A stretch of 39,368 bases of DNA, from sequence record OR545379, one strand, 5' to 3'. Below the pieces are notes generated by a model. That model did no database searches. It was not told the origin of the DNA and saw only the letters and a list, made by a program, of their open reading frames with translations. The stretch comes from Escherichia phage Sekstaphage-1. A program made the translations under genes and the position numbers. Shown here one piece after another: positions 5,890 through 39,368 of the stretch. How positions within the stretch are numbered: position 1 is the first letter of the stretch; each line of letters begins with the position of its first letter.

Positions 5890-6162
5890 ATGGGACGTAT
5901 CTATAGCGGAAACCTGAACGATTACAAGGACGCCATTGAGCGCCTTAAAGAAGACCACGATGTAACAGTGTCGATGGAGACATTCAGCTACGAAAACCCG
6001 GCGAAGATGTGCAGGTCATGTGGTGAGGTTCTCCGTGTGTTCACACGCTCCGGGCATCTGGTGGCATCCAGAACCTTCGAGCATAGCGACAGCGATGTAC
6101 AAATCAACGCGCAGACTGCATGGCTCCGTAAGGTTCACAGCGAATTGAAACACTGGAAGTAA
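5890..6162 (+). CDS. 1.2: Inhibitor of host dGTP triphosphohydrolase (gp1.2)
   Basis: 90 aa from ATG 5890 (MGRIYSGNL...LKHWK); matches T7 gp1.2 at both ends. The track start at 5878 is a GTG extension. Confidence 0.85.
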   Translation: MGRIYSGNLNDYKDAIERLKEDHDVTVSMETFSYENPAKMCRSCGEVLRVFTRSGHLVASRTFEHSDSDVQINAQTAWLRKVHSELKHWK

Positions 6163-6182
6163 TAACCCTCACTAAAGGGAGA
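6160..6182 (+). promoter_or_regulatory. Phage RNAP promoter (phi1.3-like)
   Basis: tAATAACCCTCACTAAAGGGAGA. Confidence 0.85.
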
Positions 6183-6200: not shown

Positions 6201-6656
6201 ATGAGAATTTCATTTGACTTAATGAGTCCTTCCTTTCTCTCATGGGATACGGGTCGTCACACTGGCGGCTCTATTCGCAACGGCTATAGAAGGGTTCGTT
6301 ATGAAGGTAAGTGGTTAAACCATCACATACTCATTTGGGAACACTTCAACGGTGCAGTCCCGGAGGGAATGGAAGTAGACCACATTGACCGTAACAAACT
6401 TAACAACGCGCCTAGTAACCTTAGACTTGTGACCCGCTCTGAGAACAACCGAAATCGGTCAGTACACCGGAACAACAAGTCAGGAATCAAAGGTGTCTAC
6501 TGGCACAAACACCGCCAAGTTTGGTACGGTCAGTGTCGAAGGGGCAACAAAACATTTATCACCGCTGGTTGCTCCACGAAGGAACAGGCGGCAGAACTTT
6601 TAGAGAAACTCAAAGAGGAAATTAATTATGATGATTTTCAAAACCGTCCCGTATAA
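6201..6656 (+). CDS. Free-standing HNH homing endonuclease with C-terminal AP2-like DNA-binding domain
   Basis: 151 aa with AAAGGAGG ribosome-binding site; HNH_3-type core WLNHHILIWEHFNGAVPEGMEVDHIDRNKLNNAPSNLRLVTRSEN and AP2-like GIKGVYWHK...KTFITAGCSTKEQAAELLEKL; sits between gene 1.2 and the ligase. Confidence 0.85.
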   Translation: MRISFDLMSPSFLSWDTGRHTGGSIRNGYRRVRYEGKWLNHHILIWEHFNGAVPEGMEVDHIDRNKLNNAPSNLRLVTRSENNRNRSVHRNNKSGIKGVYWHKHRQVWYGQCRRGNKTFITAGCSTKEQAAELLEKLKEEINYDDFQNRPV

Positions 6657-14834: not shown

Positions 14835-15435
14835 AAACTATTTCATTGTGCACATTAAATCTGGTGAACTCGGTGAAACCCTACTGGGGCAATACCGAGC
14901 CAAGCCATAGGGAGGATATATGAGAGGCAAGAAGTTAATTCTTGAGGCCACTGAGACTGGCTGTATCATCCCTACGTCACACAAACTTAATGCCGATGGT
15001 TATTTCAGAAAGAAAACCAATGGCACATTGGAAATGTATCACAGAACGGTGTGGAAGGAGCATAACGGAGACATACCTGATGGCTTCGAGATAGACCATA
15101 AGTGTCGCAATAGGGCTTGCTGTAACATAGAACATTTACAGATGCTTGAAGGTACAGCCCACACTGTTAAGACCAATCGTGAACGCTACGCAGACAGAAA
15201 GGAAACAGCTAGAGAATATTGGCTGGAGACTGGATGTACAGGCATGGCACTCGGTGAGAAGTTTGGTGTGTCGTTCTCTTCCGCTTGTAAGTGGATTAGA
15301 GAATGGAAGGCGTAGAGACTATCCGAAAGGAGTAGGGCCGAGGGTGAGACTCCCTCGTAACCCGAAGCGCCAGACAGTCAACTCAAAGGCTGATGATATA
15401 GTCCGACACTCCTAGTAATAGGAGAATACAGAAAG
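14835..15435 (+). mobile_element. Group I self-splicing intron in the DNA polymerase gene, carrying an HNH endonuclease ORF
   Basis: 601 nt separate two in-frame polymerase segments; exon 1 ends in U (14834); GTGCAC at 14848-14853 can pair with the exon end GTGCAU giving the U-G pair typical of P1; the intron ends in G (15435). Confidence 0.85.
14920..15315 (+). CDS. Intron-encoded HNH homing endonuclease
   Basis: 131 aa with GGGAGGA ribosome-binding site; HNH/zinc motif DGFEIDHKCRNRACCNIEHLQMLEGTAHTVKTN; lies wholly inside the intron. Confidence 0.85.
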   Translation: MRGKKLILEATETGCIIPTSHKLNADGYFRKKTNGTLEMYHRTVWKEHNGDIPDGFEIDHKCRNRACCNIEHLQMLEGTAHTVKTNRERYADRKETAREYWLETGCTGMALGEKFGVSFSSACKWIREWKA

Positions 15436-28874: not shown

Positions 28875-31800
28875 ATGAGTTACGATAAGAACAAACCTAG
28901 CGAGTTCGATGGGTTATTTCAAAAAGCGGCAGACAATCATGGGGTCTCCTATGACCTGCTTCGTAAATTAGCATTCAACGAATCCAGCTTTAATCCAAAG
29001 GCCAAATCCCCAACTGGCCCGAAGGGTCTCATGCAGTTCACCAAAGGTACAGCCACTGCGCTTGGCCTCAAGGTTACTGACGCTGAGGACGATGACCGTT
29101 ACAACCCTGAGTTGGCTGTGGATGCAGCCGCTCGTCACCTGAGTGACCTCATTCGGAAATACGATGGGGATGAACTCAAAGCTGCCTTGGCGTATAATCA
29201 GGGCGAGGGACGCAACGGTGCTCCGCAGATACAGGCTTATGATAAAGGCGATTGGGCCTCAATATCTGAGGAAGGTCGTAACTACATGCGTAACCTGATG
29301 GATGTAGCCAATAGCCCACGTAAGGGAGACTTGGAGGCGTTCGGTGGTATCACCCCAAAGGCTAAGGGTATTCCCTCTGAGGAAGCCTTTGCGGGAATCG
29401 GGAAGAAGCAGACGGTAGGCACTGACCTGCCGGAGTCAACTGGATTCAAAGTGGAGGGTAAAGAGCAGCAAGCACCTAACATGCCTTATGCTAAGGACTT
29501 TTGGGAAAAGACTGGAACAACACTGGACGAGTTTAATTCGCGTTCAACCTTCTTCGGAATCGGAGATGCCACAAGTGCAGAACTTCACAACTCCGTATTG
29601 GGTGTGGCTTTTCGTGCCGCTCGTAGTGATGACGGTTTTGATTTATTCAAGGACACCATTACGCCGACTCGCTGGAACAGCCATACGTGGACTCCAGAAG
29701 AGTTAGAGCGTATCCGTAAGGAAGTGAAGAATCCAGACTACATTAACGTGGTCACTGGTGGTTCTCCTGAGAATCTGGATGCCCTCATTAAGATGGCTAA
29801 CGACAACTATGCGATGGACGCCCAAGCTGCTGATGCTGGTATTGGCGCTAGGCTGACTGCTGGTATCGTCGGTGCAGGTGTTGACCCACTGAGCTATGTT
29901 CCTCTAGTGGGTGTAGCCGGGAAGGGTCTCAAGGTGGCTAACAAGGCTTTCATTGTTGGTACTCAAAGTGCCGGACTCGCGGTTGCCTCTGAGGGTCTCC
30001 GTACATCAATCGCTGGTGGAGAATCCCACTATGCTGATGCTGCTTTAGGCGGTCTGATGTTCGGTGCTGGGATGAGTGCAATAAGTGATGCTATCGCGGC
30101 TGGTATTCGGCGTTCCCGTGGGAATGAGGTTGTTAATGACTTCGCTCCTATGGCACACCGATTGGAAGCCCGTGAGACCGCTCAGAACACTGGTGGGGAA
30201 GACCTGACCCGTATGCCTAGCGAGAACCGTGTGTTCGACCGTGAGCACGCTGGCGTTGAGTATTCACCTCTGGAGACCGAGCCGGGTGCCGTTGTGTTGC
30301 CTCAAGGTCAAATCCTGAGCGACACCAACCCGCTGAACCCTCAGACTCTTAGCGAGTTCGAGGCGGTCAACCCTGAGCGTGCAGCGCGTGGTATCTCTTT
30401 GGGTGGATTCACTGAGATTGGCTTGAAGACTCTACGCTCAGAGAACCCGACTGTTCGCTCCATTGCGAGTGACCTTGTGCGCTCTCCGACTGGTATGGAG
30501 TCCGGGACTTCTGGTAAGTTCGGCGCGACAGCTTCTGACATTAAGGAGCGACTCCACGCGAACAACCAGCGCACCTACAATCAACTTTATGATGCTGTAC
30601 GCGCTGCAATGAAAGACCCTGAGTTCTCCACTGGTGGTTCCAAGATGAGCCGTAAGGAAATCAGACAGGAAATCTACAAACGTGCAGCCCTAGCTATTGA
30701 GCGACCTGAGCTTCAAGCGAACCTGACAAAGGGTGAGCGGAATGTGATGAATATCCTCAAGCAGCACTTTGACCTAAAACGTGAAATCATGGAGAACCCA
30801 TCAATCTTCGGTAACACCAAGGCAACCAGTATCTTCCCCGGCTCACGCCATAAGGGAACCTACGTGCCTAACGTGTATGACCGAGCACTCAAGATTGATA
30901 TGATTAAACGGTATGGTAATGACGGCTTGCAGCGAGCAATCGCGGAGTCGTGGTTGACCTCTTATCGTGCTCGCCCCGAAGTCAAGGCGCGTGTCGATGA
31001 GTACCTGATGGAACTTAGCGGTCTCAAGTCTGTGCAGGAAGTTACGCCAGAGATGGTGCAGAAGCACGCAATGGATAAGGCGTATGGTATTTCACACACA
31101 GACCAGTTCTCTGCATCCTCTATCATTGAGGACAACATTGAGGGTCTGGTGGGAATCGAGAACAATAACTTCTTGGAAGCCCGCAACATGTTCGACAGTG
31201 ACATGGCGGTGACTCTCCCGGATGGTAACACGTTCTCTGTGAATGACCTGCGTACTTATGACATGGCTGAAATTCTACCTGCATATGACCGCCGAGTTGA
31301 TGGTGATGTTGCAATCATGGGTGGTTCCGGTAAGACCACCAAAGACCTGAAAGATGAAATCATGGCACTAGACAAGCAGTCAGAAGGCAACGGTACGCTG
31401 AAAGGTGAGGTCGAAGCCCTAAAGGACACCGTGAAGATTCTAACTGGTCGCGCTAGAAGGAACCCGGAAGGCGCTTGGGGCACAGCCCTACGCTCAGTCA
31501 ATGACCTTACGTTCTTCGCTAAGAACGCCTACATGGGTGCACAGAACATTACCGAAATCGCTGGTATGCTGGCTAAAGGTAACGTCTCTGCGATAACTCA
31601 TGGAATCCCTATGATTAACGATTGGGTCAACCGTGGGAAACCGCTGCGTGCCTCCGAGATTAAAGAGCTACACGGAATGGTGTTTGGTAAGGAACTAGAC
31701 CAGTTAATCCGTCCGGGACGTGAAGACCATGTACGCCGCCTTCGGGAGTCTACGGACACCAACGCTGCGGTTGCTAACGTGGTCGGTACGATTCGGTTCG

Positions 31801-32837
31801 GCACTCAAGAGTTGGCTGCACGTTCTCCTTGGACGTTGATGCTCAACGGCACCTCCAACTACATTCTAGATGCTGCCCGTCAGGGTGTGCTTGGAGATGT
31901 GGCTGGTGCAGCCCTAGCCGGGAAAGGCTCCAAGTTCGGCAAGGCGAATTACCTTAAGTCTGCCTCAATCAGCCCTGAGCAGTGGAACGGAATCAAGCAG
32001 TTGTTCCGCGACCACGCGACTCGTGAGGCTGACGGTAAGTTTACCATCAAGGATAAACAGGCTTTTGCTAATGACCCACGCTCAATGGACTTGTGGCGTC
32101 TGGCTGACAAGGTGGCTGATGAGACTATACTTCGTCCACACAAGGTTTCCTCACAGGATGCCAAGGCATTCGGTGCCGGAGTTAAGATGGTGATGCAGTT
32201 TAAGAACTTCGTCATCAAGTCCCTGAACTCCCGGTTTGTCCGTAGCTTCTATGAGGCAACGAAGAACAACCGAGCGTTAGACCAAGCGTTGACTCATGTC
32301 ATCTCCTTAGGTCTGGCTGGCGGTTACTACGTTGGTCAGGCACACCTCAAGGCTGCAAGCCTACAGGAACATAAACGTAAGGAGTACCTTAAGAACGCAC
32401 TTGACCCGAAGATGATTGCCCATGCATCAATCTCTCGTAGTTCGCACTTAGGCGCACCATTGGGTATCTATGACATGCTCGCTGGGATGGTTGGCAGCGA
32501 TACCTATAAGTATACACGCTCCACGGTACTCCCTAAAGAGTCTGAGAAGCGCGACCCTAGCAAGGCAGCAACGGGTAGACAGGTGGCTTCAACCATCGCT
32601 GGTGCGGTTGGTGAGCAGGTTCCGGGTTTGGGGTTTATTGGCTCTGTAGGAGCAACAGCAATTAATGCTGCTTCCCTACTGTCTTCTCCCAACAAAACAA
32701 CCGCTCTGGAGTTCCGTACAGGTCTCTTCAACACCTCTCGTGAGTTGATTCCTAATGACCCGCTCTCACAGCAACTCATCATGAAAATCTACGAGGCCAA
32801 CGGCATCCGCATAAAGGAGTCCCCGAAGAAACAATAA
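28875..32837 (+). CDS. 16: Internal virion (core) protein D with N-terminal lytic transglycosylase domain (gp16)
   Basis: 1320 aa collinear with T7 gp16; N-terminal transglycosylase-type segment GPKGLMQFTKGTA...AALAYNQGEG. Confidence 0.95.
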   Translation: MSYDKNKPSEFDGLFQKAADNHGVSYDLLRKLAFNESSFNPKAKSPTGPKGLMQFTKGTATALGLKVTDAEDDDRYNPELAVDAAARHLSDLIRKYDGDELKAALAYNQGEGRNGAPQIQAYDKGDWASISEEGRNYMRNLMDVANSPRKGDLEAFGGITPKAKGIPSEEAFAGIGKKQTVGTDLPESTGFKVEGKEQQAPNMPYAKDFWEKTGTTLDEFNSRSTFFGIGDATSAELHNSVLGVAFRAARSDDGFDLFKDTITPTRWNSHTWTPEELERIRKEVKNPDYINVVTGGSPENLDALIKMANDNYAMDAQAADAGIGARLTAGIVGAGVDPLSYVPLVGVAGKGLKVANKAFIVGTQSAGLAVASEGLRTSIAGGESHYADAALGGLMFGAGMSAISDAIAAGIRRSRGNEVVNDFAPMAHRLEARETAQNTGGEDLTRMPSENRVFDREHAGVEYSPLETEPGAVVLPQGQILSDTNPLNPQTLSEFEAVNPERAARGISLGGFTEIGLKTLRSENPTVRSIASDLVRSPTGMESGTSGKFGATASDIKERLHANNQRTYNQLYDAVRAAMKDPEFSTGGSKMSRKEIRQEIYKRAALAIERPELQANLTKGERNVMNILKQHFDLKREIMENPSIFGNTKATSIFPGSRHKGTYVPNVYDRALKIDMIKRYGNDGLQRAIAESWLTSYRARPEVKARVDEYLMELSGLKSVQEVTPEMVQKHAMDKAYGISHTDQFSASSIIEDNIEGLVGIENNNFLEARNMFDSDMAVTLPDGNTFSVNDLRTYDMAEILPAYDRRVDGDVAIMGGSGKTTKDLKDEIMALDKQSEGNGTLKGEVEALKDTVKILTGRARRNPEGAWGTALRSVNDLTFFAKNAYMGAQNITEIAGMLAKGNVSAITHGIPMINDWVNRGKPLRASEIKELHGMVFGKELDQLIRPGREDHVRRLRESTDTNAAVANVVGTIRFGTQELAARSPWTLMLNGTSNYILDAARQGVLGDVAGAALAGKGSKFGKANYLKSASISPEQWNGIKQLFRDHATREADGKFTIKDKQAFANDPRSMDLWRLADKVADETILRPHKVSSQDAKAFGAGVKMVMQFKNFVIKSLNSRFVRSFYEATKNNRALDQALTHVISLGLAGGYYVGQAHLKAASLQEHKRKEYLKNALDPKMIAHASISRSSHLGAPLGIYDMLAGMVGSDTYKYTRSTVLPKESEKRDPSKAATGRQVASTIAGAVGEQVPGLGFIGSVGATAINAASLLSSPNKTTALEFRTGLFNTSRELIPNDPLSQQLIMKIYEANGIRIKESPKKQ

Positions 32838-32855
32838 ACCCTCACTAAAGGGAGA
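32833..32855 (+). promoter_or_regulatory. Phage RNAP promoter (phi17-like)
   Basis: AATAAACCCTCACTAAAGGGAGA. Confidence 0.85.
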
Positions 32856-32916
32856 GAGGTCACATTCTGGCCTCTTCTCTCTCTATCGCTTAGTGCTAAT
32901 TTATAAAGGAGGTCAC

Positions 32917-34920
32917 ATGGCTACAACTATTAAGACCGTGATGACTTACCCACTGGATGGCTCCACTACGGACTTTAATATTCCGTTCGAGTATCTGGCG
33001 CGTAAGTTCGTCCGAGTGACCCTTATCGGTGTTGACCGAAAGGAACTCATCTTGAATCAAGACTATCGTTTTGCAACTAAGACCACAATCTCCACAACGA
33101 GAGCATTGGGGCCAGCGGACGGATATACTTTGATTGAAATCAGGCGATTCACCTCCGCTACAGATCGTCTGGTTGACTTTACCGACGGCTCTATCCTGCG
33201 GGCATATGATTTGAACATATCTCTGGTTCAGGCCCTTCACGTTGCTGAGGAAGCCCGTGACCTTACCGCTGATACAATTGGCGTTAACAATGATGGGAAC
33301 TTGGATGCTCGTGGTCGTAAGATTGTGAACCTAGCGTTCGCCACCAGTGACTATGATGCTGTCCCTCTGAAGCAGGTTAAGGAACGTGAGACCTCTGTGT
33401 GGAGTGCTGTTGCTAAAGCTGATGAACATGCTAACCGTTCTAACACTGAGGCTAACCGTTCTCGTGATGAGGCCAACCGTGCTCAACGTGAAGCTGACCG
33501 CTCAACGCAACAGGCAGGTGTCTCTACGCAACAAGCGGTTGAGTCCAAGAAGCAAGCTGACCGTTCCAACTCTGAGGCCAACCGTGCTAAAGGTTACGCT
33601 GATAGTATGCCAGCCAGTGTTGAAGCCGCAAAGGGTCACGCTGACCGTTCCAATAAGGAAGCTGACCGTGCTCGTGATGAGGCCAATCGTGCTGCTGGAG
33701 AAGTCACTAAGGCGGCTGCTGAGGTTGCCAAGGCTGCTGCACATGTTGAGACCGCTAAGGGACATGCTGACCGAGCCAACACTGAGGCAAACCGCTCCAA
33801 GAGTGAAGCTGACCGTGCAAAGACCGAGGCTGACAAGTTAGGCAACATGAATGCACTTGCAGGGGCTGTTGAAAGTGTATCAGGCAATGATGTACGCTTT
33901 AAGGGTAAAGTAAGTGGGCGCAGTCTGACTCTACATAATGATGCTAAAGGCGCTGGGACTCAACCAGTAGACCAAGTGTGGAATCAGTGGCGTGGTCAGG
34001 ACTCTAAGGAGACTGTGTGGGAACAGTGGATTCAAGCTGGGACAAAACGAATGGACTACTATGCGTTCACTAACACCGACCCGGCAACGTGGCCTGAAGG
34101 TCGTTCCAATAGCAAAGGACACCATAGCTTCTATGGTGACGTTCTGTTTGCTGGTGGTAACGTCGAGATGCACGGGAACCTTAAGGTAAACGCAGTTGAG
34201 TCTAGAAATAACGTGTTCATCTCCGACAAAGCCGCAAGTTTCAAGAGTAACACACATGGTGGTGGCTGGAACCAGTGGACTAGTAGCTTGAATCCAGACC
34301 TACAGCATGATATTGCTGGACAAGGGGACGTTGCATATCTCCTTGAGAGGGCTACAATTTGGGGCAAAGAACACCTGTATGCCAAGTGCTTATATAACAA
34401 CGGCACTGGCGCTAACTTCTTTATCAGGCAATATCTGCGAGGCACCTATTTCGACCTACGCTCCGATGGTGTCCTTGCCTGCTCTTCTGGTTGGAACATC
34501 CCAGCCGATGGTAACCTATATATCAAGAAGTACGGAATGTACATTGATGCGTGGGTAAATAATCGTCTGTCCGAACATGCCTACAACAAAGGAGAAGTGA
34601 ACAACTTGGTCAACGGTCGTCTTACCACTGGTCAGGGTGATGGTCGCTATGTCCGCAAGAACGCTGGGTGGGCTGAGGTCTGGAGCGGCCATGCTGGTGG
34701 TGGTGTTTCCGTAGGTCTCTCACAGGATGTCCGATGGAGAACTATCTGGATTCAAACTAATGGGCGCTGGAACGCTGTTCCTATTGGTGACGACGCACGA
34801 TACTTCATCTCGTCTGATGGTGGTTGGCTTAAGTTCACAATCTCTAACAACGGGAGAACTTTCCGTAATGATGCTGACCGTAGTTCTGTGCCTACGAGAA
34901 TCTTGATTCAAAACCAATAA
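32917..34920 (+). CDS. 17: Tail fibre protein (gp17)
   Basis: 667 aa from ATG 32917 (MATTIKTVMTYPLDGSTTDFNIPFEYLARKF...); N-terminal 150 aa and the C-terminal tip (...WSGHAGGGVSVGLSQDVRWRTIWIQ...) are T7 gp17-like; the centre is repeat-rich. Confidence 0.93.
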   Translation: MATTIKTVMTYPLDGSTTDFNIPFEYLARKFVRVTLIGVDRKELILNQDYRFATKTTISTTRALGPADGYTLIEIRRFTSATDRLVDFTDGSILRAYDLNISLVQALHVAEEARDLTADTIGVNNDGNLDARGRKIVNLAFATSDYDAVPLKQVKERETSVWSAVAKADEHANRSNTEANRSRDEANRAQREADRSTQQAGVSTQQAVESKKQADRSNSEANRAKGYADSMPASVEAAKGHADRSNKEADRARDEANRAAGEVTKAAAEVAKAAAHVETAKGHADRANTEANRSKSEADRAKTEADKLGNMNALAGAVESVSGNDVRFKGKVSGRSLTLHNDAKGAGTQPVDQVWNQWRGQDSKETVWEQWIQAGTKRMDYYAFTNTDPATWPEGRSNSKGHHSFYGDVLFAGGNVEMHGNLKVNAVESRNNVFISDKAASFKSNTHGGGWNQWTSSLNPDLQHDIAGQGDVAYLLERATIWGKEHLYAKCLYNNGTGANFFIRQYLRGTYFDLRSDGVLACSSGWNIPADGNLYIKKYGMYIDAWVNNRLSEHAYNKGEVNNLVNGRLTTGQGDGRYVRKNAGWAEVWSGHAGGGVSVGLSQDVRWRTIWIQTNGRWNAVPIGDDARYFISSDGGWLKFTISNNGRTFRNDADRSSVPTRILIQNQ

Positions 34921-34967
34921 TGGAATACAACGAGGCCACGGATGGTCTCAACAATAAGGAGGACACA

Positions 34968-35174
34968 ATGTTGTCTTTAGATTTTAACAACGAGGTAGTG
35001 AAGGCTGCTCCGATTGTAGGGACAGGTGTAGCCGATGGTGCTGCCCGTCTGTTCTTCGGACTGTCCCTTAACGAGTGGTTCTATGTAGCCGCAATTGCCT
35101 ACACAGTGGCTCAAATTGGTGCCAAGGTAGTCGATGTGATTATCAAATGGAAGAAGGAGGGTAAAGATGTCTAA
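34968..35174 (+). CDS. 17.5: Holin (gp17.5)
   Basis: 68 aa from ATG 34968 (MLSLDFNNEVVKAAPIVGTGVADGAARLFFGLSLNEWFYVAAIAYTVAQIGAKVV...), near-identical to T7 holin; AAGGAGG ribosome-binding site. Confidence 0.9.
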   Translation: MLSLDFNNEVVKAAPIVGTGVADGAARLFFGLSLNEWFYVAAIAYTVAQIGAKVVDVIIKWKKEGKDV

Positions 35175-35436
35175 CGATAAATCTTTGATTCAATTCCTTG
35201 AGATGCTGGACACTGAGATGGCTCAACGTATGCTTGCTGACTTGCAGAACGATGAACGACGCACACCTCAACTGTACAACGCAATCGGGAAACTATTAGA
35301 GCGCCACAAATTCCAAGTCTCCAAGTTACAGCCAGACCGTAACATCCTTGGTGGACTGGCAGATGGACTCGAAGAGTACCAGAACATGGTGGGCGCTGAT
35401 GGTCTCACTGAAGACGAGAAGTACACGCTTAACTGA
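35167..35436 (+). CDS. 18: Terminase small subunit (gp18)
   Basis: 89 aa, the same length as T7 gp18; GAAGGAGGG ribosome-binding site. Confidence 0.9.
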   Translation: MSNDKSLIQFLEMLDTEMAQRMLADLQNDERRTPQLYNAIGKLLERHKFQVSKLQPDRNILGGLADGLEEYQNMVGADGLTEDEKYTLN

Positions 35437-35439
35437 TGG

Positions 35440-35478
35440 TAATACTCAAGGTCATCTTAATGGTGGCCTTTATGGATT
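35440..35478 (+). promoter_or_regulatory. RNase III processing hairpin (R18.5-like)
   Basis: TAATACTCAAGGTCATCTTAATGGTGGCCTTTATGGATT. Confidence 0.6.
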
Positions 35479-35494
35479 ATCAATAGGAGGTGAT

Positions 35495-35896
35495 ATGGAA
35501 GGAATGTATAGAAGTGGTGGTTACTGGAAGGTTACTATAAACGGTAAAGTACACGGTGTACACAGGTTGTTGTGGGAAGCTGCCTATGGCTCAATACCAG
35601 ATGGTTATGTTATAGACCACATTGACAGAGATGGTCTTAATAATTCTCTTGATAACTTACGGTGCATACCGAAGGGAGCTAACAAGGCAAACACTGTATC
35701 CTCAAGGGACTTACCGAAGGGAGTATACTCTCGGTTTGCCAAGCGACTTAACTGCATTGTGTACTATGGGGATATTAGAATGGGAGGTGTGAAGAAAACA
35801 CATGCTCCTACTAAGAATCTGAAGGAAGTCGTGGACTGGTCTATTAAGACTCACAAGCAGATGCTGGGGGAAACATATGGGATTCAAAACAGTTAA
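35495..35896 (+). CDS. Free-standing HNH homing endonuclease with AP2-like domain
   Basis: 133 aa from ATG 35495 with AGGAGG ribosome-binding site; HNH core HRLLWEAAYGSIPDGYVIDHIDRDGLNNSLDNLRCIP; sits between gene 18 and gene 18.5. Confidence 0.85.
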   Translation: MEGMYRSGGYWKVTINGKVHGVHRLLWEAAYGSIPDGYVIDHIDRDGLNNSLDNLRCIPKGANKANTVSSRDLPKGVYSRFAKRLNCIVYYGDIRMGGVKKTHAPTKNLKEVVDWSIKTHKQMLGETYGIQNS

Positions 35897-36332
35897 GAGC
35901 TACGCCATCGCTGTGGCCTTTGCCTTGGGGATGACCCTTGCGTACAACCACGGCTATGACAAGGCTAACACTAAATGGGAACAGGAGGTGCACAATGAGT
36001 ACGTTAAGAAAGTTGAGGCGACTGCGGATAAACAGGCTGCTCTCAATGAAGTCTCACGACAATACCAAGAAGACCTTGCGGCGCTGGAAGGCAGCACTGA
36101 TAGGGTCATTAATGATTTGCGTAACGATGGTAAGCGGCTGTCAGTCCGCGTCAAGAACCTTACCGGACTACCGAAAGGTGACGGTCGATGCGAGTTTGAT
36201 GGTCGAGCCGAACTACACGAGTCAGATGCTAAGCGTATTATCGGAATAGCCCAAGCTGCTGATGCTCACGTAAGAGCGTTGCAGAAAACTATTAAGGAGA
36301 TGCAGAATGAGCGACACCCAAGCAAATCGTAA
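35877..36332 (+). CDS. 18.5: Inner-membrane spanin (Rz-like, gp18.5)
   Basis: 151 aa; N-terminal transmembrane segment [15 protein letters not shown], then [16 protein letters not shown]...[20 protein letters not shown] matching T7 gp18.5. Confidence 0.85.
35995..36249 (+). CDS. 18.7: Outer-membrane lipoprotein spanin (Rz1-like, gp18.7) embedded in gene 18.5
   Basis: 84 aa from ATG 35995 in the +1 frame of gene 18.5; signal peptide with lipobox (VSGC) and Pro-rich mature part; AGGAGG ribosome-binding site. Confidence 0.8.
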   Translation: MSTLRKLRRLRINRLLSMKSHDNTKKTLRRWKAALIGSLMICVTMVSGCQSASRTLPDYRKVTVDASLMVEPNYTSQMLSVLSE

Positions 36333-38070
36333 TGCGCTAATCATTGCGCAGCTTAAGGGTGACTTCGTGGCCTTCCTGTTCGTATTGTGGAAGGCTTTGG
36401 CTCTCCCGCCACCGACTAAGTGTCAGATTGATATGGCCCGGTGTCTGGCTAACGGAGACAACAAGAAGTTTATCCTACAGGCTTTCCGTGGTATCGGTAA
36501 GTCATTCATCACCTGTGCGTTCGTTGTGTGGACGTTATGGCGTGACCCTCAGTTAAAGATACTGATTGTCTCTGCATCCAAAGAACGTGCGGACGCTAAC
36601 TCCATCTTCATTAAGAACATCATTGATCTTCTGCCCTTCTTGGCTGAGCTAAAGCCTCGTCCCGGTCAGCGTGACTCTGTGATTAGTTTCGATGTTGGCC
36701 CTGCCAAGCCTGACCACTCTCCGTCTGTGAAGTCGGTGGGTATCACTGGTCAGTTGACTGGTAGTCGTGCTGATATCATCATAGCGGATGACGTTGAGAT
36801 TCCGTCTAACTCCGCAACTCAAGGTGCCCGTGAGAAGCTGTGGACTCTGGTGCAGGAATTTGCTGCGCTTCTGAAACCGCTGCCGACCTCTCGCGTTATC
36901 TACCTTGGTACGCCTCAAACCGAAATGACCTTGTACAAGGAACTCGAAGATAACCGTGGGTACACCACAATCATCTGGCCCGCGCTCTATCCGCGTAGCC
37001 GTGAGGAAGACTTGTACTATGGCGACCGTCTGGCCCCGATGCTCCGCGAAGAGTTCAACGATGGGTTCGAGATGCTCCAAGGTCAACCGACTGACCCCGT
37101 GCGCTTCGATATGGAAGACCTGCGTGAGCGTGAGTTGGAATACGGTAAGGCTGGCTTCACTTTGCAGTTCATGCTCAACCCGAACCTGAGTGATGCCGAG
37201 AAGTACCCCTTACGCCTCCGTGATGCTATCGTGTGCGGTCTGGACTTCGAGAAAGCCCCAATGCATTACCAGTGGCTTCCGAACCGTCAGAATCGCAATG
37301 AAGAGCTACCTAACGTGGGCCTTAAGGGTGATGACATTCATAGCTATCATTCATGCAGTCAGAACACTGGACAGTACCAACAGCGCATCCTCGTGATTGA
37401 CCCTAGTGGTCGCGGTAAGGATGAGACAGGTTACGCAGTGTTGTTCACCCTGAATGGCTACATCTATCTGATGGAAGCTGGCGGGTTCCGCGATGGTTAT
37501 TCCGATAAGACCCTTGAGTCCCTCGCTAAGAAAGCGAAGCAGTGGAAGGTTCAGACAGTGGTCTTCGAGAGTAACTTCGGGGATGGTATGTTTGGTAAGG
37601 TATTCAGCCCGGTTCTCCTGAAACACCATGCAGCGCAGCTTGAAGAGATTCGTGCTCGTGGTATGAAGGAACTACGCATTTGTGATACGCTGGAGCCTGT
37701 ACTCTCTACGCACCGCCTTGTGATTCGTGACGAGGTGATTCGTGAGGACTACCAGACTGCCCGTGACGCCGATGGCAAGCATGACGTTCGATACTCGTTG
37801 TTCTACCAGTTGACCCGTATGGCTCGTGAGAAGGGCGCTGTGGCCCACGATGACCGACTTGATGCGTTAGCATTAGGTGTGGAGTTCTTACGCTCTACGA
37901 TGGAACTGGACGCCGTGAAGGTGGAAGCTGAGGTGCTTGAGGCATTCTTAGAGGAACACATGGAGCACCCAATCCATTCGGCTGGTCACGTAGTTACCGC
38001 TATGGTTGACGGGATGGAACTCTATTGGGAGGATGACGATGTGAATAGCAACAGGTTCATTGACTGGTAA
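36307..38070 (+). CDS. 19: Terminase large subunit (gp19)
   Basis: 587-aa ORF; size and position of T7 gp19; overlaps the end of gene 18.5 as in T7. Confidence 0.95.
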
Positions 38071-38079
38071 GGAGGTAAT

Positions 38080-38514
38080 ATGTTTGACGTGAGGTATGAC
38101 CCGGATGTGCCGGGGTGCCTCTCTAACTCTAAGGGTGAGCAACTCGCAGTTCTACAAGGAGAATACTTCAAGTGGAACGGCGGGAGTGCTCATCGTATTA
38201 TATGGGAAGGCTTCAATGGGAGGATACCAGACGGTTACATGGTTGACCATATAAACCGCAACAAGCAGGACAATCGGATAGAGAACCTACGACTGGTCAC
38301 TCGGTCCCAGAATGTCCACAACTCCAAGCGTAAGAGGGCCGATGGGATGCCCAAAGGAATTACAGCACGCCAGCGGGACTTTAGGATTCTGGTCCATAAG
38401 GATTGTAAGAAGTACGTAAGGTACGCACCGACACTTGCGGAAGCCATAAAGGTCCGCGAGGAGCTTGTAGAGTCCTTGGGCCTGTCTGCATATTATGTCG
38501 ATTCATCCGCATAA
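38080..38514 (+). CDS. Free-standing HNH homing endonuclease with AP2-like domain
   Basis: 144 aa with AAGGAGG ribosome-binding site; HNH core HRIIWEGFNGRIPDGYMVDHINRNKQDNRIENLRLVTRSQN and AP2-like KGITARQRDFRILVHKDCKKYVRYAPTLAEAIKVREEL; starts 10 nt after the gene 19 stop. Confidence 0.85.
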   Translation: MFDVRYDPDVPGCLSNSKGEQLAVLQGEYFKWNGGSAHRIIWEGFNGRIPDGYMVDHINRNKQDNRIENLRLVTRSQNVHNSKRKRADGMPKGITARQRDFRILVHKDCKKYVRYAPTLAEAIKVREELVESLGLSAYYVDSSA

Positions 38515-38573
38515 GGATTCATTGAGACCACGGATGGTCACTTTAAGAAACTCCTTAAGAATCAATGAGTTTG

Positions 38574-38596
38574 CATTAACCCTCACTAAAGGGAGA
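38574..38596 (+). promoter_or_regulatory. Phage RNAP promoter (phiOR-like)
   Basis: cATTAACCCTCACTAAAGGGAGA. Confidence 0.85.
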
Positions 38597-38736
38597 GAGG
38601 GGACTTAAAGCTACTATATAGGTTAGTCATTCAGGTTATGCAATGACCCTTTATGCACTTTAAGTCTACCTCTGTGATTGGTGATATTATCATTGTATAA
38701 TCACCCTACCTTAGAGCAACTGAAAGGAGGTGGCTC

Positions 38737-38886
38737 ATGTTACGCTTGCTGATTGCCCTGCTGCGTCATAGAGTCACTTGGCGATTTCTTATTGTACTTG
38801 GTGCTGCCATTGGGTACGCAGGTCTTACTGACAACCTCAGTGAACTGGAAATGGCCTTTTGCTCTCTACTCTCTTGTAGCGATTAA
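38737..38886 (+). CDS. 19.5: Gene 19.5 homolog (small hydrophobic protein)
   Basis: 49 aa MLRLLIALLRHRVTWRFLIVLGAAIGYAGLTDNLSELEMAFCSLLSCSD, closely matches T7 gp19.5; AGGAGG ribosome-binding site. Confidence 0.85.
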   Translation: MLRLLIALLRHRVTWRFLIVLGAAIGYAGLTDNLSELEMAFCSLLSCSD

Positions 38887-39083
38887 GCTGCTTATGGGGG
38901 GGACAGACGCTTGTGAACACCGAGGGATTCGGAGGTATAGTTTCACTACACCACCTCATCCCTATAGAGTCAACCCTTAAGGGTTTACCTAAAGATGCCC
39001 TGTAGTTCCTAACGCTGGTCTACAGGGTCTCCTAGCTATCCCTTCGGGATGCGCCTATGGTCTCACCTATGGTGTGGCCTTAC

Positions 39084-39103
39084 CTAAAGTGGGTTCCTAA
39101 AGA
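39084..39103. repeat. CCTAAAG heptamer repeats near the right end
   Basis: TACCTAAAGTGGGTTCCTAAAGAG carries two copies of the heptamer just left of the right terminal repeat. Confidence 0.6.
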
Positions 39104-39141
39104 GACCCTTTAAGAATTTACTACAAAAATCTGAATGGGTA

Positions 39142-39368
39142 TCTCACAGTGTAAGAACCTCAAGTACCCCCATAGCCCTCTTAAAGCCACCAAAAGGAAG
39201 CCCTACCCCTAGGGTTTAACCTTCGGTTAACCTTGGGTCTCTCATCAAGTGGCCTATAGGATAGCCTAAAGTGGTGCCTAAAGTCAATACCTAAAGTGAT
39301 GGCTGCCTATTGGAGACTTAAAGAGTGTCCTAGTGTACCAGTTCGATAGTACATCTCTATGTATCCCT
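39142..39368. repeat. Right direct terminal repeat (TR)
   Basis: Identical to 1..227. Confidence 0.9.

Follow-up and report, generated by a model that had tools for sequence, protein, structure and literature searches.

A probable free-standing HNH-AP2-type homing endonuclease gene in the gap between genes 18 and 18.5 of Escherichia phage Sekstaphage-1

The open reading frame (ORF) between the small terminase gene (gene 18) and the spanin gene 18.5 of Escherichia phage Sekstaphage-1 is probably a free-standing homing endonuclease gene (HEG) of the HNN/HNH-AP2 type, carried on a 411-bp cassette in the 18/18.5 gap. An intact catalytic core, an AP2-like domain, sharp boundaries, empty sites, a patchy spread across genera and decaying copies together form the classical homing pattern, and this is the reading best supported by the sequence comparisons. 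The window, that is, the whole stretch of DNA analysed (39,368 bp), is a complete genome of a T7-group phage.

The left 25 kb of the window is 96.6% identical to coliphage T3 (Teetrevirus), and twelve T3-type promoters are present in the window. The right arm is mosaic: positions 31000–33336 and 36063–39368 share 91–94% identity with VSG32 (Teetrevirus), and positions 34486–35483 and 35895–36254 share 89–95% identity with the Berlinvirus phages BSP161, BA14, PYPS50 and Kvp1. Judging from these alignments, the cassette sits in the genome of a T3-like Teetrevirus whose right arm is Berlinvirus-like, and the gp18 of this genome has 98.9% amino acid identity to the gp18 of Kvp1 and BSP161. Block 33337–36062, which is unlike VSG32 although it lies inside an otherwise T3/VSG32-like genome, comprises the C-terminal part of the tail fibre, the holin and gene 18 as well as the 5′ portion of gene 18.5; it is not Teetrevirus-like, most of it being Berlinvirus-like (89–95%), and the right-hand return to VSG32-like sequence at 36063 lies 168 bp beyond the cassette. 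As for the holin ORF in this block (34920–35174), it was called mechanically at 84 aa; since its Pfam match begins at residue 20 and the proteins of relatives have 67–68 aa, the true start is probably the ATG at 34968 (MLSLDF…).

The initial annotation had placed a 133-aa HNH-AP2 ORF between genes 18 and 18.5, and the ORF was indeed found there, with both neighbours confirmed by profile matches (Table 1). The AGGAGG site assigned to it is present at 35485–35490, 4 nt ahead of the ATG, and (A)AGGAGGT is kept 3–5 nt ahead of the ATG in all orthologous loci. The first Met is conserved in all orthologues, and the start at 35495 was therefore retained; the in-frame ATG at 35504, which was considered as another start, was rejected because, unlike the first Met, it is not conserved. 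At the other end, the 20-nt overlap with gene 18.5 that had been described (35877–35896) is correct, as the ATG of gene 18.5 lies at 35877. That T7 has no ORF at this place also holds: none occurs in the 18/18.5 gap of T7 or T3, and the T3 record annotates R18.5 there. Further downstream, the o-spanin ATG at 35995 is preceded by AGGAGGT.

Table 1. Positions of the features in and around the cassette, and of the HNH_3 gene downstream of gene 19, in the window.
Feature	Position	Strand	Basis or remark
Gene 18, small subunit of terminase (flanks the insert on the left)	35167..35436	+	Pfam DNA_Packaging_2, E 2.9e-17; PHROG 1351, E 5e-43
R18.5-type RNase III processing hairpin (predicted)	35437..35482	+	Fold z = -4.4; aligns with annotated T3 R18.5
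Inserted cassette, 411 bp	35484..35894	+	Comparison with empty-site Berlinvirus genomes
Shine-Dalgarno AGGAGGT of the HNH gene	35485..35491	+	Read in the sequence
HNH(HNN)-AP2-type endonuclease gene, 133 aa	35495..35896	+	ATG to TAA (35894-35896); profile matches
HNH_3 core, residues 21-63, with D41, H42, N54, N63	35555-35683	+	Pfam
AP2-like domain, residues ~73-128	35711-35878	+	Fold and remote homology
Purine-rich RBS GGGGGAA for gene 18.5, within the last HNH codons (…G-E-T-Y-G…)	35863..35869	+	Sequence, alignment
Gene 18.5, i-spanin (Rz-like)	35877..36332	+	PHROG 1327, E 1e-60; Pfam Phage_lysis
Gene 18.7, o-spanin, embedded in gene 18.5	35995..36249	+	Pfam O_Spanin_T7 (PF17531), E 3.6e-26
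HNH_3 gene, 144 aa, between the gene 19 stop (38070) and phiOR (38575)	38080..38514	+	Pfam HNH_3, E 8e-23

The protein is predicted to be a nuclease, in which a catalytic core of the I-HmuI-like His-Me (HNH_3) type precedes a DNA-binding domain that is AP2-like. The profile searches, by which the HNH fold was to stand or fall, matched Pfam HNH_3 (PF13392) to residues 21–63 with E = 8.8e-18 (64.1 bits against a cut-off of 24.8), and PHROG 99 ‘HNH endonuclease’ matched the protein with E 1e-23; the match is to HNH_3 only, as the general Pfam HNH model gave none at E ≤ 1, and NCBIfam holds no model for it. The sole sequence match in the PDB is I-HmuI (1U3E), whose D74/H75/N87/N96 align with D41/H42/N54/N63, and each of these four residues is at least 90% conserved across 119 relatives. 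The AlphaFold2 (AF2) model built from the alignment of relatives is confident (pLDDT 94.3); it contains the beta-beta-alpha-metal fold of the HNH_3/I-HmuI-like enzymes, and in its C-terminal region a three-stranded antiparallel sheet packed on one helix, which can be superposed on solved AP2 domains. In I-HmuI (structure 1U3E), the C-terminal DNA-binding region is helical (HTH) and not AP2-like.

The label ‘HNH-AP2’ given in the initial annotation is thus right, its first half by Pfam and its second by fold and remote homology. Pfam AP2 (PF00847) gave no match to the protein itself at E ≤ 1; it matches 31 of the 119 relatives of similar length, and hhalign of the C-terminal profiles against these AP2-positive relatives gave P = 5.5e-4 with a probability of 30% in the correct register. 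A Foldseek search against the PDB returned nothing significant. That is to say, the AP2 assignment is a modelled one, drawn from fold and weak profile similarity without a Pfam match.

With an HNH_3 match and a dN/dS of 0.05, the ORF is not a chance one, and the gene is intact, with its own ribosome-binding site (RBS) and under strong purifying selection. Against its closest relative, the metagenomic phage contig L011 (39,955 bp; 93% amino acid identity), 40 differences are synonymous and 11 non-synonymous (dN/dS 0.048), and against TM1 the dN/dS is 0.074; this purifying selection is as strong as that on the essential neighbours. The dS of the gene between the window and the nearest relative is 0.74, within the range of the flanking genes (0.49–1.35). 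It is very unlikely that the ORF is an untranslated or decaying remnant devoid of current activity, as its frameshifted or truncated orthologues might suggest, because in the window the reading frame is unbroken and no catalytic residue is missing, the RBS is strong and conserved, the differences from L011 are mostly synonymous and the AF2 model is confident.

The boundaries of the insert are sharp when compared with BSP161, BA14 and PYPS50, to which homology runs up to 35483 and resumes at 35895. What the cassette replaces is 65 bp holding the conserved spacer as well as the native RBS and ATG of gene 18.5 and the first five of its codons. Along with the 18–18.5 spacer, the cassette takes away the native start of the spanin gene, for which its 3′ end gives a replacement: the end of the HNH gene (…G-E-T-Y-G-I-Q-N-S) also encodes the purine-rich RBS, the ATG and six codons of the spanin, so that the start codon and first six codons of gene 18.5 fall inside the cassette. 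Relatives have GGAGGAA or AAGGAGA at the position of this RBS, and GAAACATATGG does not vary among the four aligned loci that carry the HNH gene.

The lost spacer (…CTACGTGAAATCTGA…) is conserved in the HNH-free T3, T7, VSG32 and Berlinvirus genomes, and the motif CTACGTGAAATCTGA occurs nowhere in the window. This spacer, non-coding and situated between R18.5 and the start of gene 18.5, has a core, GCTA-CGTGAAATCTGA, which is conserved across Teseptimavirus, Teetrevirus and Berlinvirus (positions 2096–2138, 1375–1417 and 892–936 of the compared sequences L001, L002 and L010, respectively). Since this spacer is exactly what the HNH cassette removes, it is a candidate recognition site of the enzyme.

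As for its distribution, full-length orthologues with 59–80% amino acid identity occur in the phage collection at the same junction, likewise overlapping the spanin gene: in Helsettvirus, the fPS-53 group of Yersinia phages, including fPS-54-ocr; in Kayfunavirus, Escherichia phages TM1, YZ1 and BUCT788; and in Przondovirus, Klebsiella phages IME321, P509 and dozens more. The same 18/18.5 site is occupied by orthologues in four genera, and those in TM1, IME321, fPS-53 and others also share the length (132–134 aa), the RBS and the placement just past the R18.5 hairpin and over the spanin start. The synteny comparison of the 18 to 18.5 junction that had been proposed shows it empty in the Berlinvirus relatives and filled by orthologues in other genera. 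In total, the gene occurs in about 55–75 records, compared with about 1,250 records in which a T7-type gp18 is present (about 5%). Within the phage collection, amino acid identity to the HNH protein is never above 80%; two uncultured metagenome proteins reach 93–95%, and the gene order is the same on the full-length phage contig that encodes one of them. An IMG/VR scan gave only distant HNH_3 relatives (at most 55% identity) and no orthologues.

Two features of this distribution are those of free-standing HEGs: the gene is sporadically present at one site that is empty in close relatives (flanks 89–95% identical), and degenerate copies exist in some lineages, as in a cycle of gain and decay. 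Copies in the fPS-53 group are frameshifted, and those in fPS-26, -19 and -7 are truncated to 51% coverage. The fPS-53 orthologue itself (L004 1201–1600) is frameshifted and annotated as an 84-aa HNH, and the same phage has another ‘homing endonuclease’ directly upstream of gene 19 (L004 2340–2735). In TM1, the i-spanin frame (L005 1583–2035) is broken by an in-frame stop, and the annotation splits it into two short ‘endopeptidase’ genes, the stop being either a real disruption or a sequencing error.

If the ORF is indeed a homing endonuclease gene, then in mixed infections the enzyme would nick or cut cassette-free genomes at or near the 18/18.5 junction, and recombinational repair would copy the cassette with some flanking DNA into the cut genomes. 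The insertion would destroy the likely target, the spacer CTACGTGAAATCTGA, and carriers would be protected for this reason.

The dS close to that of the flanks and the strong purifying selection fit long vertical residence and retained function as well as they fit recent spread. It could be argued that the gene is a once-mobile endonuclease gene that is now retained as beneficial, for example by excluding co-infecting relatives, or simply locked in. The low dN/dS and the flank-like dS give it the appearance of a long-resident, constrained gene, its amino acid identity to the TM1 orthologue (78%) is higher than that of gene 18 (46%), and the start, RBS and six codons of the spanin lie within the cassette in all four genera; as the i-spanin has no RBS and start codon other than those in the 3′ end of the cassette, a lock-in is possible. 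Nevertheless, this explanation is judged unlikely, for the gene is missing and the spanin start normal in about 95% of T7-type phages, among them the closest relatives of the flanks, copies decay in Helsettvirus phages, and an exclusion of competitors through cuts in their genomes would work by the same mechanism as homing. Equally doubtful is the broader idea that the cassette is more than a selfish passenger, having perhaps become difficult to delete through the spanin start and then been kept for long by vertical descent under strong purifying selection, and acting either as an excluder or as part of a ‘HEG island’: it may exclude competing T7-like phages, or, together with the HNH gene that follows gene 19, it may bracket and mobilise the spanin-terminase block.

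The cassette starts directly past the 3′ strand of the R18.5 element, and this element is intact in the window. The initial annotation had put an RNase III-type hairpin at 35440–35478 just 5′ of the ORF; the hairpin and its position stand, and only its extent is larger (Table 1). An upper stem (35448–35470) is followed by an asymmetric internal loop and by a lower stem in which 35437–35443 pairs with 35476–35482, with weaker pairing that extends as far as 35426 and 35492; the hairpin folds with an energy of -24 kcal/mol, and none of 200 shuffles folds as well. It aligns with the T3 stem-loop annotated ‘RNase III recognition site R18.5’ and with the R18.5 element of T3 and T7 (ACTCAAGG…CCTTTATGGAT). 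All seven sequences folded singly (T3, T7, VSG32, fPS-53, TM1, IME321 and the window) take the same two-stem shape, and a ten-sequence alignment contains compensatory changes in both stems. An Rfam search found no family for R18.5-type hairpins. In summary, the two stems with an internal loop and the homologous sequence and position mark the hairpin as a putative R18.5 site, and its intactness is concluded from an architecture common to T3, T7, VSG32 and three HNH-carrying phages with compensatory changes.

No T3-type promoter and no excess of sigma-70-like sequences was found inside the cassette, the nearest T3-type promoters being phi17 (32834) upstream and phiOR (38575) downstream, so that the HNH gene must be read from the late 17–19 transcript. 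It would be transcribed late, from phi17 and upstream phage promoters within the 17–19 message, and RNase III cleavage at R18.5 would set the 5′ end of its mRNA. Unmasking of the Shine-Dalgarno sequence by this processing was considered as a general mechanism and rejected: in the window, the sequence is mostly paired in computed folds of the RNA before processing (mean P(unpaired) 0.24), and cleavage leaves it free (0.79), but this pattern is not conserved in L011, TM1, IME321 and fPS-53, where P(unpaired) is 0.45–0.79 whether the RNA is processed or not.

The window contains four HNH_3 genes. The one between the gene 19 stop and phiOR (38080–38514) is absent from T3 and present in VSG32 and L011, and it shares 41% identity with the gene at 35495–35896 over the HNH core. 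Its RBS, AAGGAGGTAATATG, nearly equals that of the cassette gene, and the two genes bracket genes 18.5–19 in the manner of the ‘HEG islands’ (PMC10448857). Another HNH_3 gene (6201–6656, 151 aa, E 2.6e-20) lies between promoter phi1.3 (6161–6182) and the ligase gene, which starts at 6628; it replaces T3 positions 6522–6593, the site of the annotated R1.3 RNase III hairpin, so that R1.3 is lost in the window, and it overlaps the ligase start by 29 nt, an overlap of the same design as that of the cassette gene. The fourth HNH_3 gene (14920–15315, 131 aa) is at the gene 5.3 position past the DNA polymerase gene, where T3 has a 101-aa HNH endonuclease in a region only partly alignable to the window.

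The point past R18.5 has also been entered by an unrelated gene. Gene 18.2 of Kvp1, which encodes an Endo VII-type nuclease (L007 841–1194), is inserted at the same point, and its 5′ junction and Shine-Dalgarno sequence are identical to those of the window up to the start region (ATTATCAATAGGAGGTG); it belongs, however, to a different nuclease family, and the native spacer and spanin start are kept downstream of it instead of being replaced. From this identity it follows that two unrelated nuclease genes share one entry point and leader. BA14, BSP161 and PYPS50 moreover have extra ORFs between genes 18.5 and 19. Taken with the HNH cassette and the HNH gene of Hafnia phage Ca, these cases make the interval between the small and large terminase genes a hot spot for nuclease cassettes.

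A location between two terminase genes, with gene 18 adjoining and gene 19 lying 411 bp downstream, raises the question of a packaging accessory nuclease that acts with terminase, like the HNH protein gp74 of HK97; as cited in PMC8861465 and PMC10448857, cos phages are known to have packaging factors among the HNH proteins encoded near their terminase genes. Such a role is nonetheless improbable in the extreme. The protein belongs to HNH_3 with an AP2-like domain and gives no match to the general Pfam HNH model; the large terminase (gene 19) is of the T7 type, matching PF22530 and Terminase_6N and no Terminase_1 model; and T3, T7 and about 95% of relatives package their DNA while lacking the gene. 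Membership in the HK97 gp74-type terminase-associated HNH proteins, which in cos phages are conserved partners required by a Terminase_1-type large terminase, was rejected on the same grounds.

For annotation, homing being the preferred reading, the value of the result is that the ORF can be entered as a genuine HNH(HNN)-AP2 homing-type gene and the 18/18.5 gap as a place where nuclease cassettes land repeatedly in T7-like phages. The cassette also illustrates how a mobile gene may avoid polar damage by supplying a substitute RBS and start codon for the downstream gene. The defined empty and filled junction sequences are a ready substrate for homing tests in the T7 group, in which, to our knowledge, only the gene 5/5.3 homing system has been studied; experimental characterisation of the orthologues at the 18/18.5 junction was not found in the literature searched.

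With regard to known systems, I-HmuI of Bacillus phage SPO1 is intron-encoded and nicking, whereas the gene of the window is free-standing in an intergenic gap. A closer counterpart is found in the HNN-AP2 endonucleases, a recognised class of phage HEGs (PMC2248197, PMC10448857), whose HNN-AP2/IPA-HNH members include those of Xanthomonas phages Xp10, OP1 and Xop411, of ICP1 and of T5, T1 and RB43. Like the protein of the window, they combine an N-terminal HNN-type HNH with a C-terminal AP2 domain and are encoded by small free-standing genes; the class occurs in multiple copies per genome, often beside essential genes such as terminase, and some copies are degenerate (PMC2248197, PMC10448857). 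The window protein differs in that its AP2 domain is too diverged for the Pfam model.

Nothing in the 18/18.5 HNH cassette challenges current understanding. The type of gene is ordinary, as the same gene is already annotated at the same spot, as an HNH or homing endonuclease, in dozens of related phages; what is new here is such a cassette in a T3-like genome, its kind being widely annotated already. Within the T7-like phages, Hafnia phage Ca (Kayfunavirus) has been reported to carry an HNH HEG that separates the lysis gene 18.5 from gene 19 and overlaps the start and stop codons of its neighbours; the population is polymorphic for this 397-bp insert (PMC8861465). Both phages are T7-like and carry an HNH gene between the two terminase genes, but they differ in the junction, which in phage Ca is 18.5/19 instead of 18/18.5, and in the HNH protein itself.
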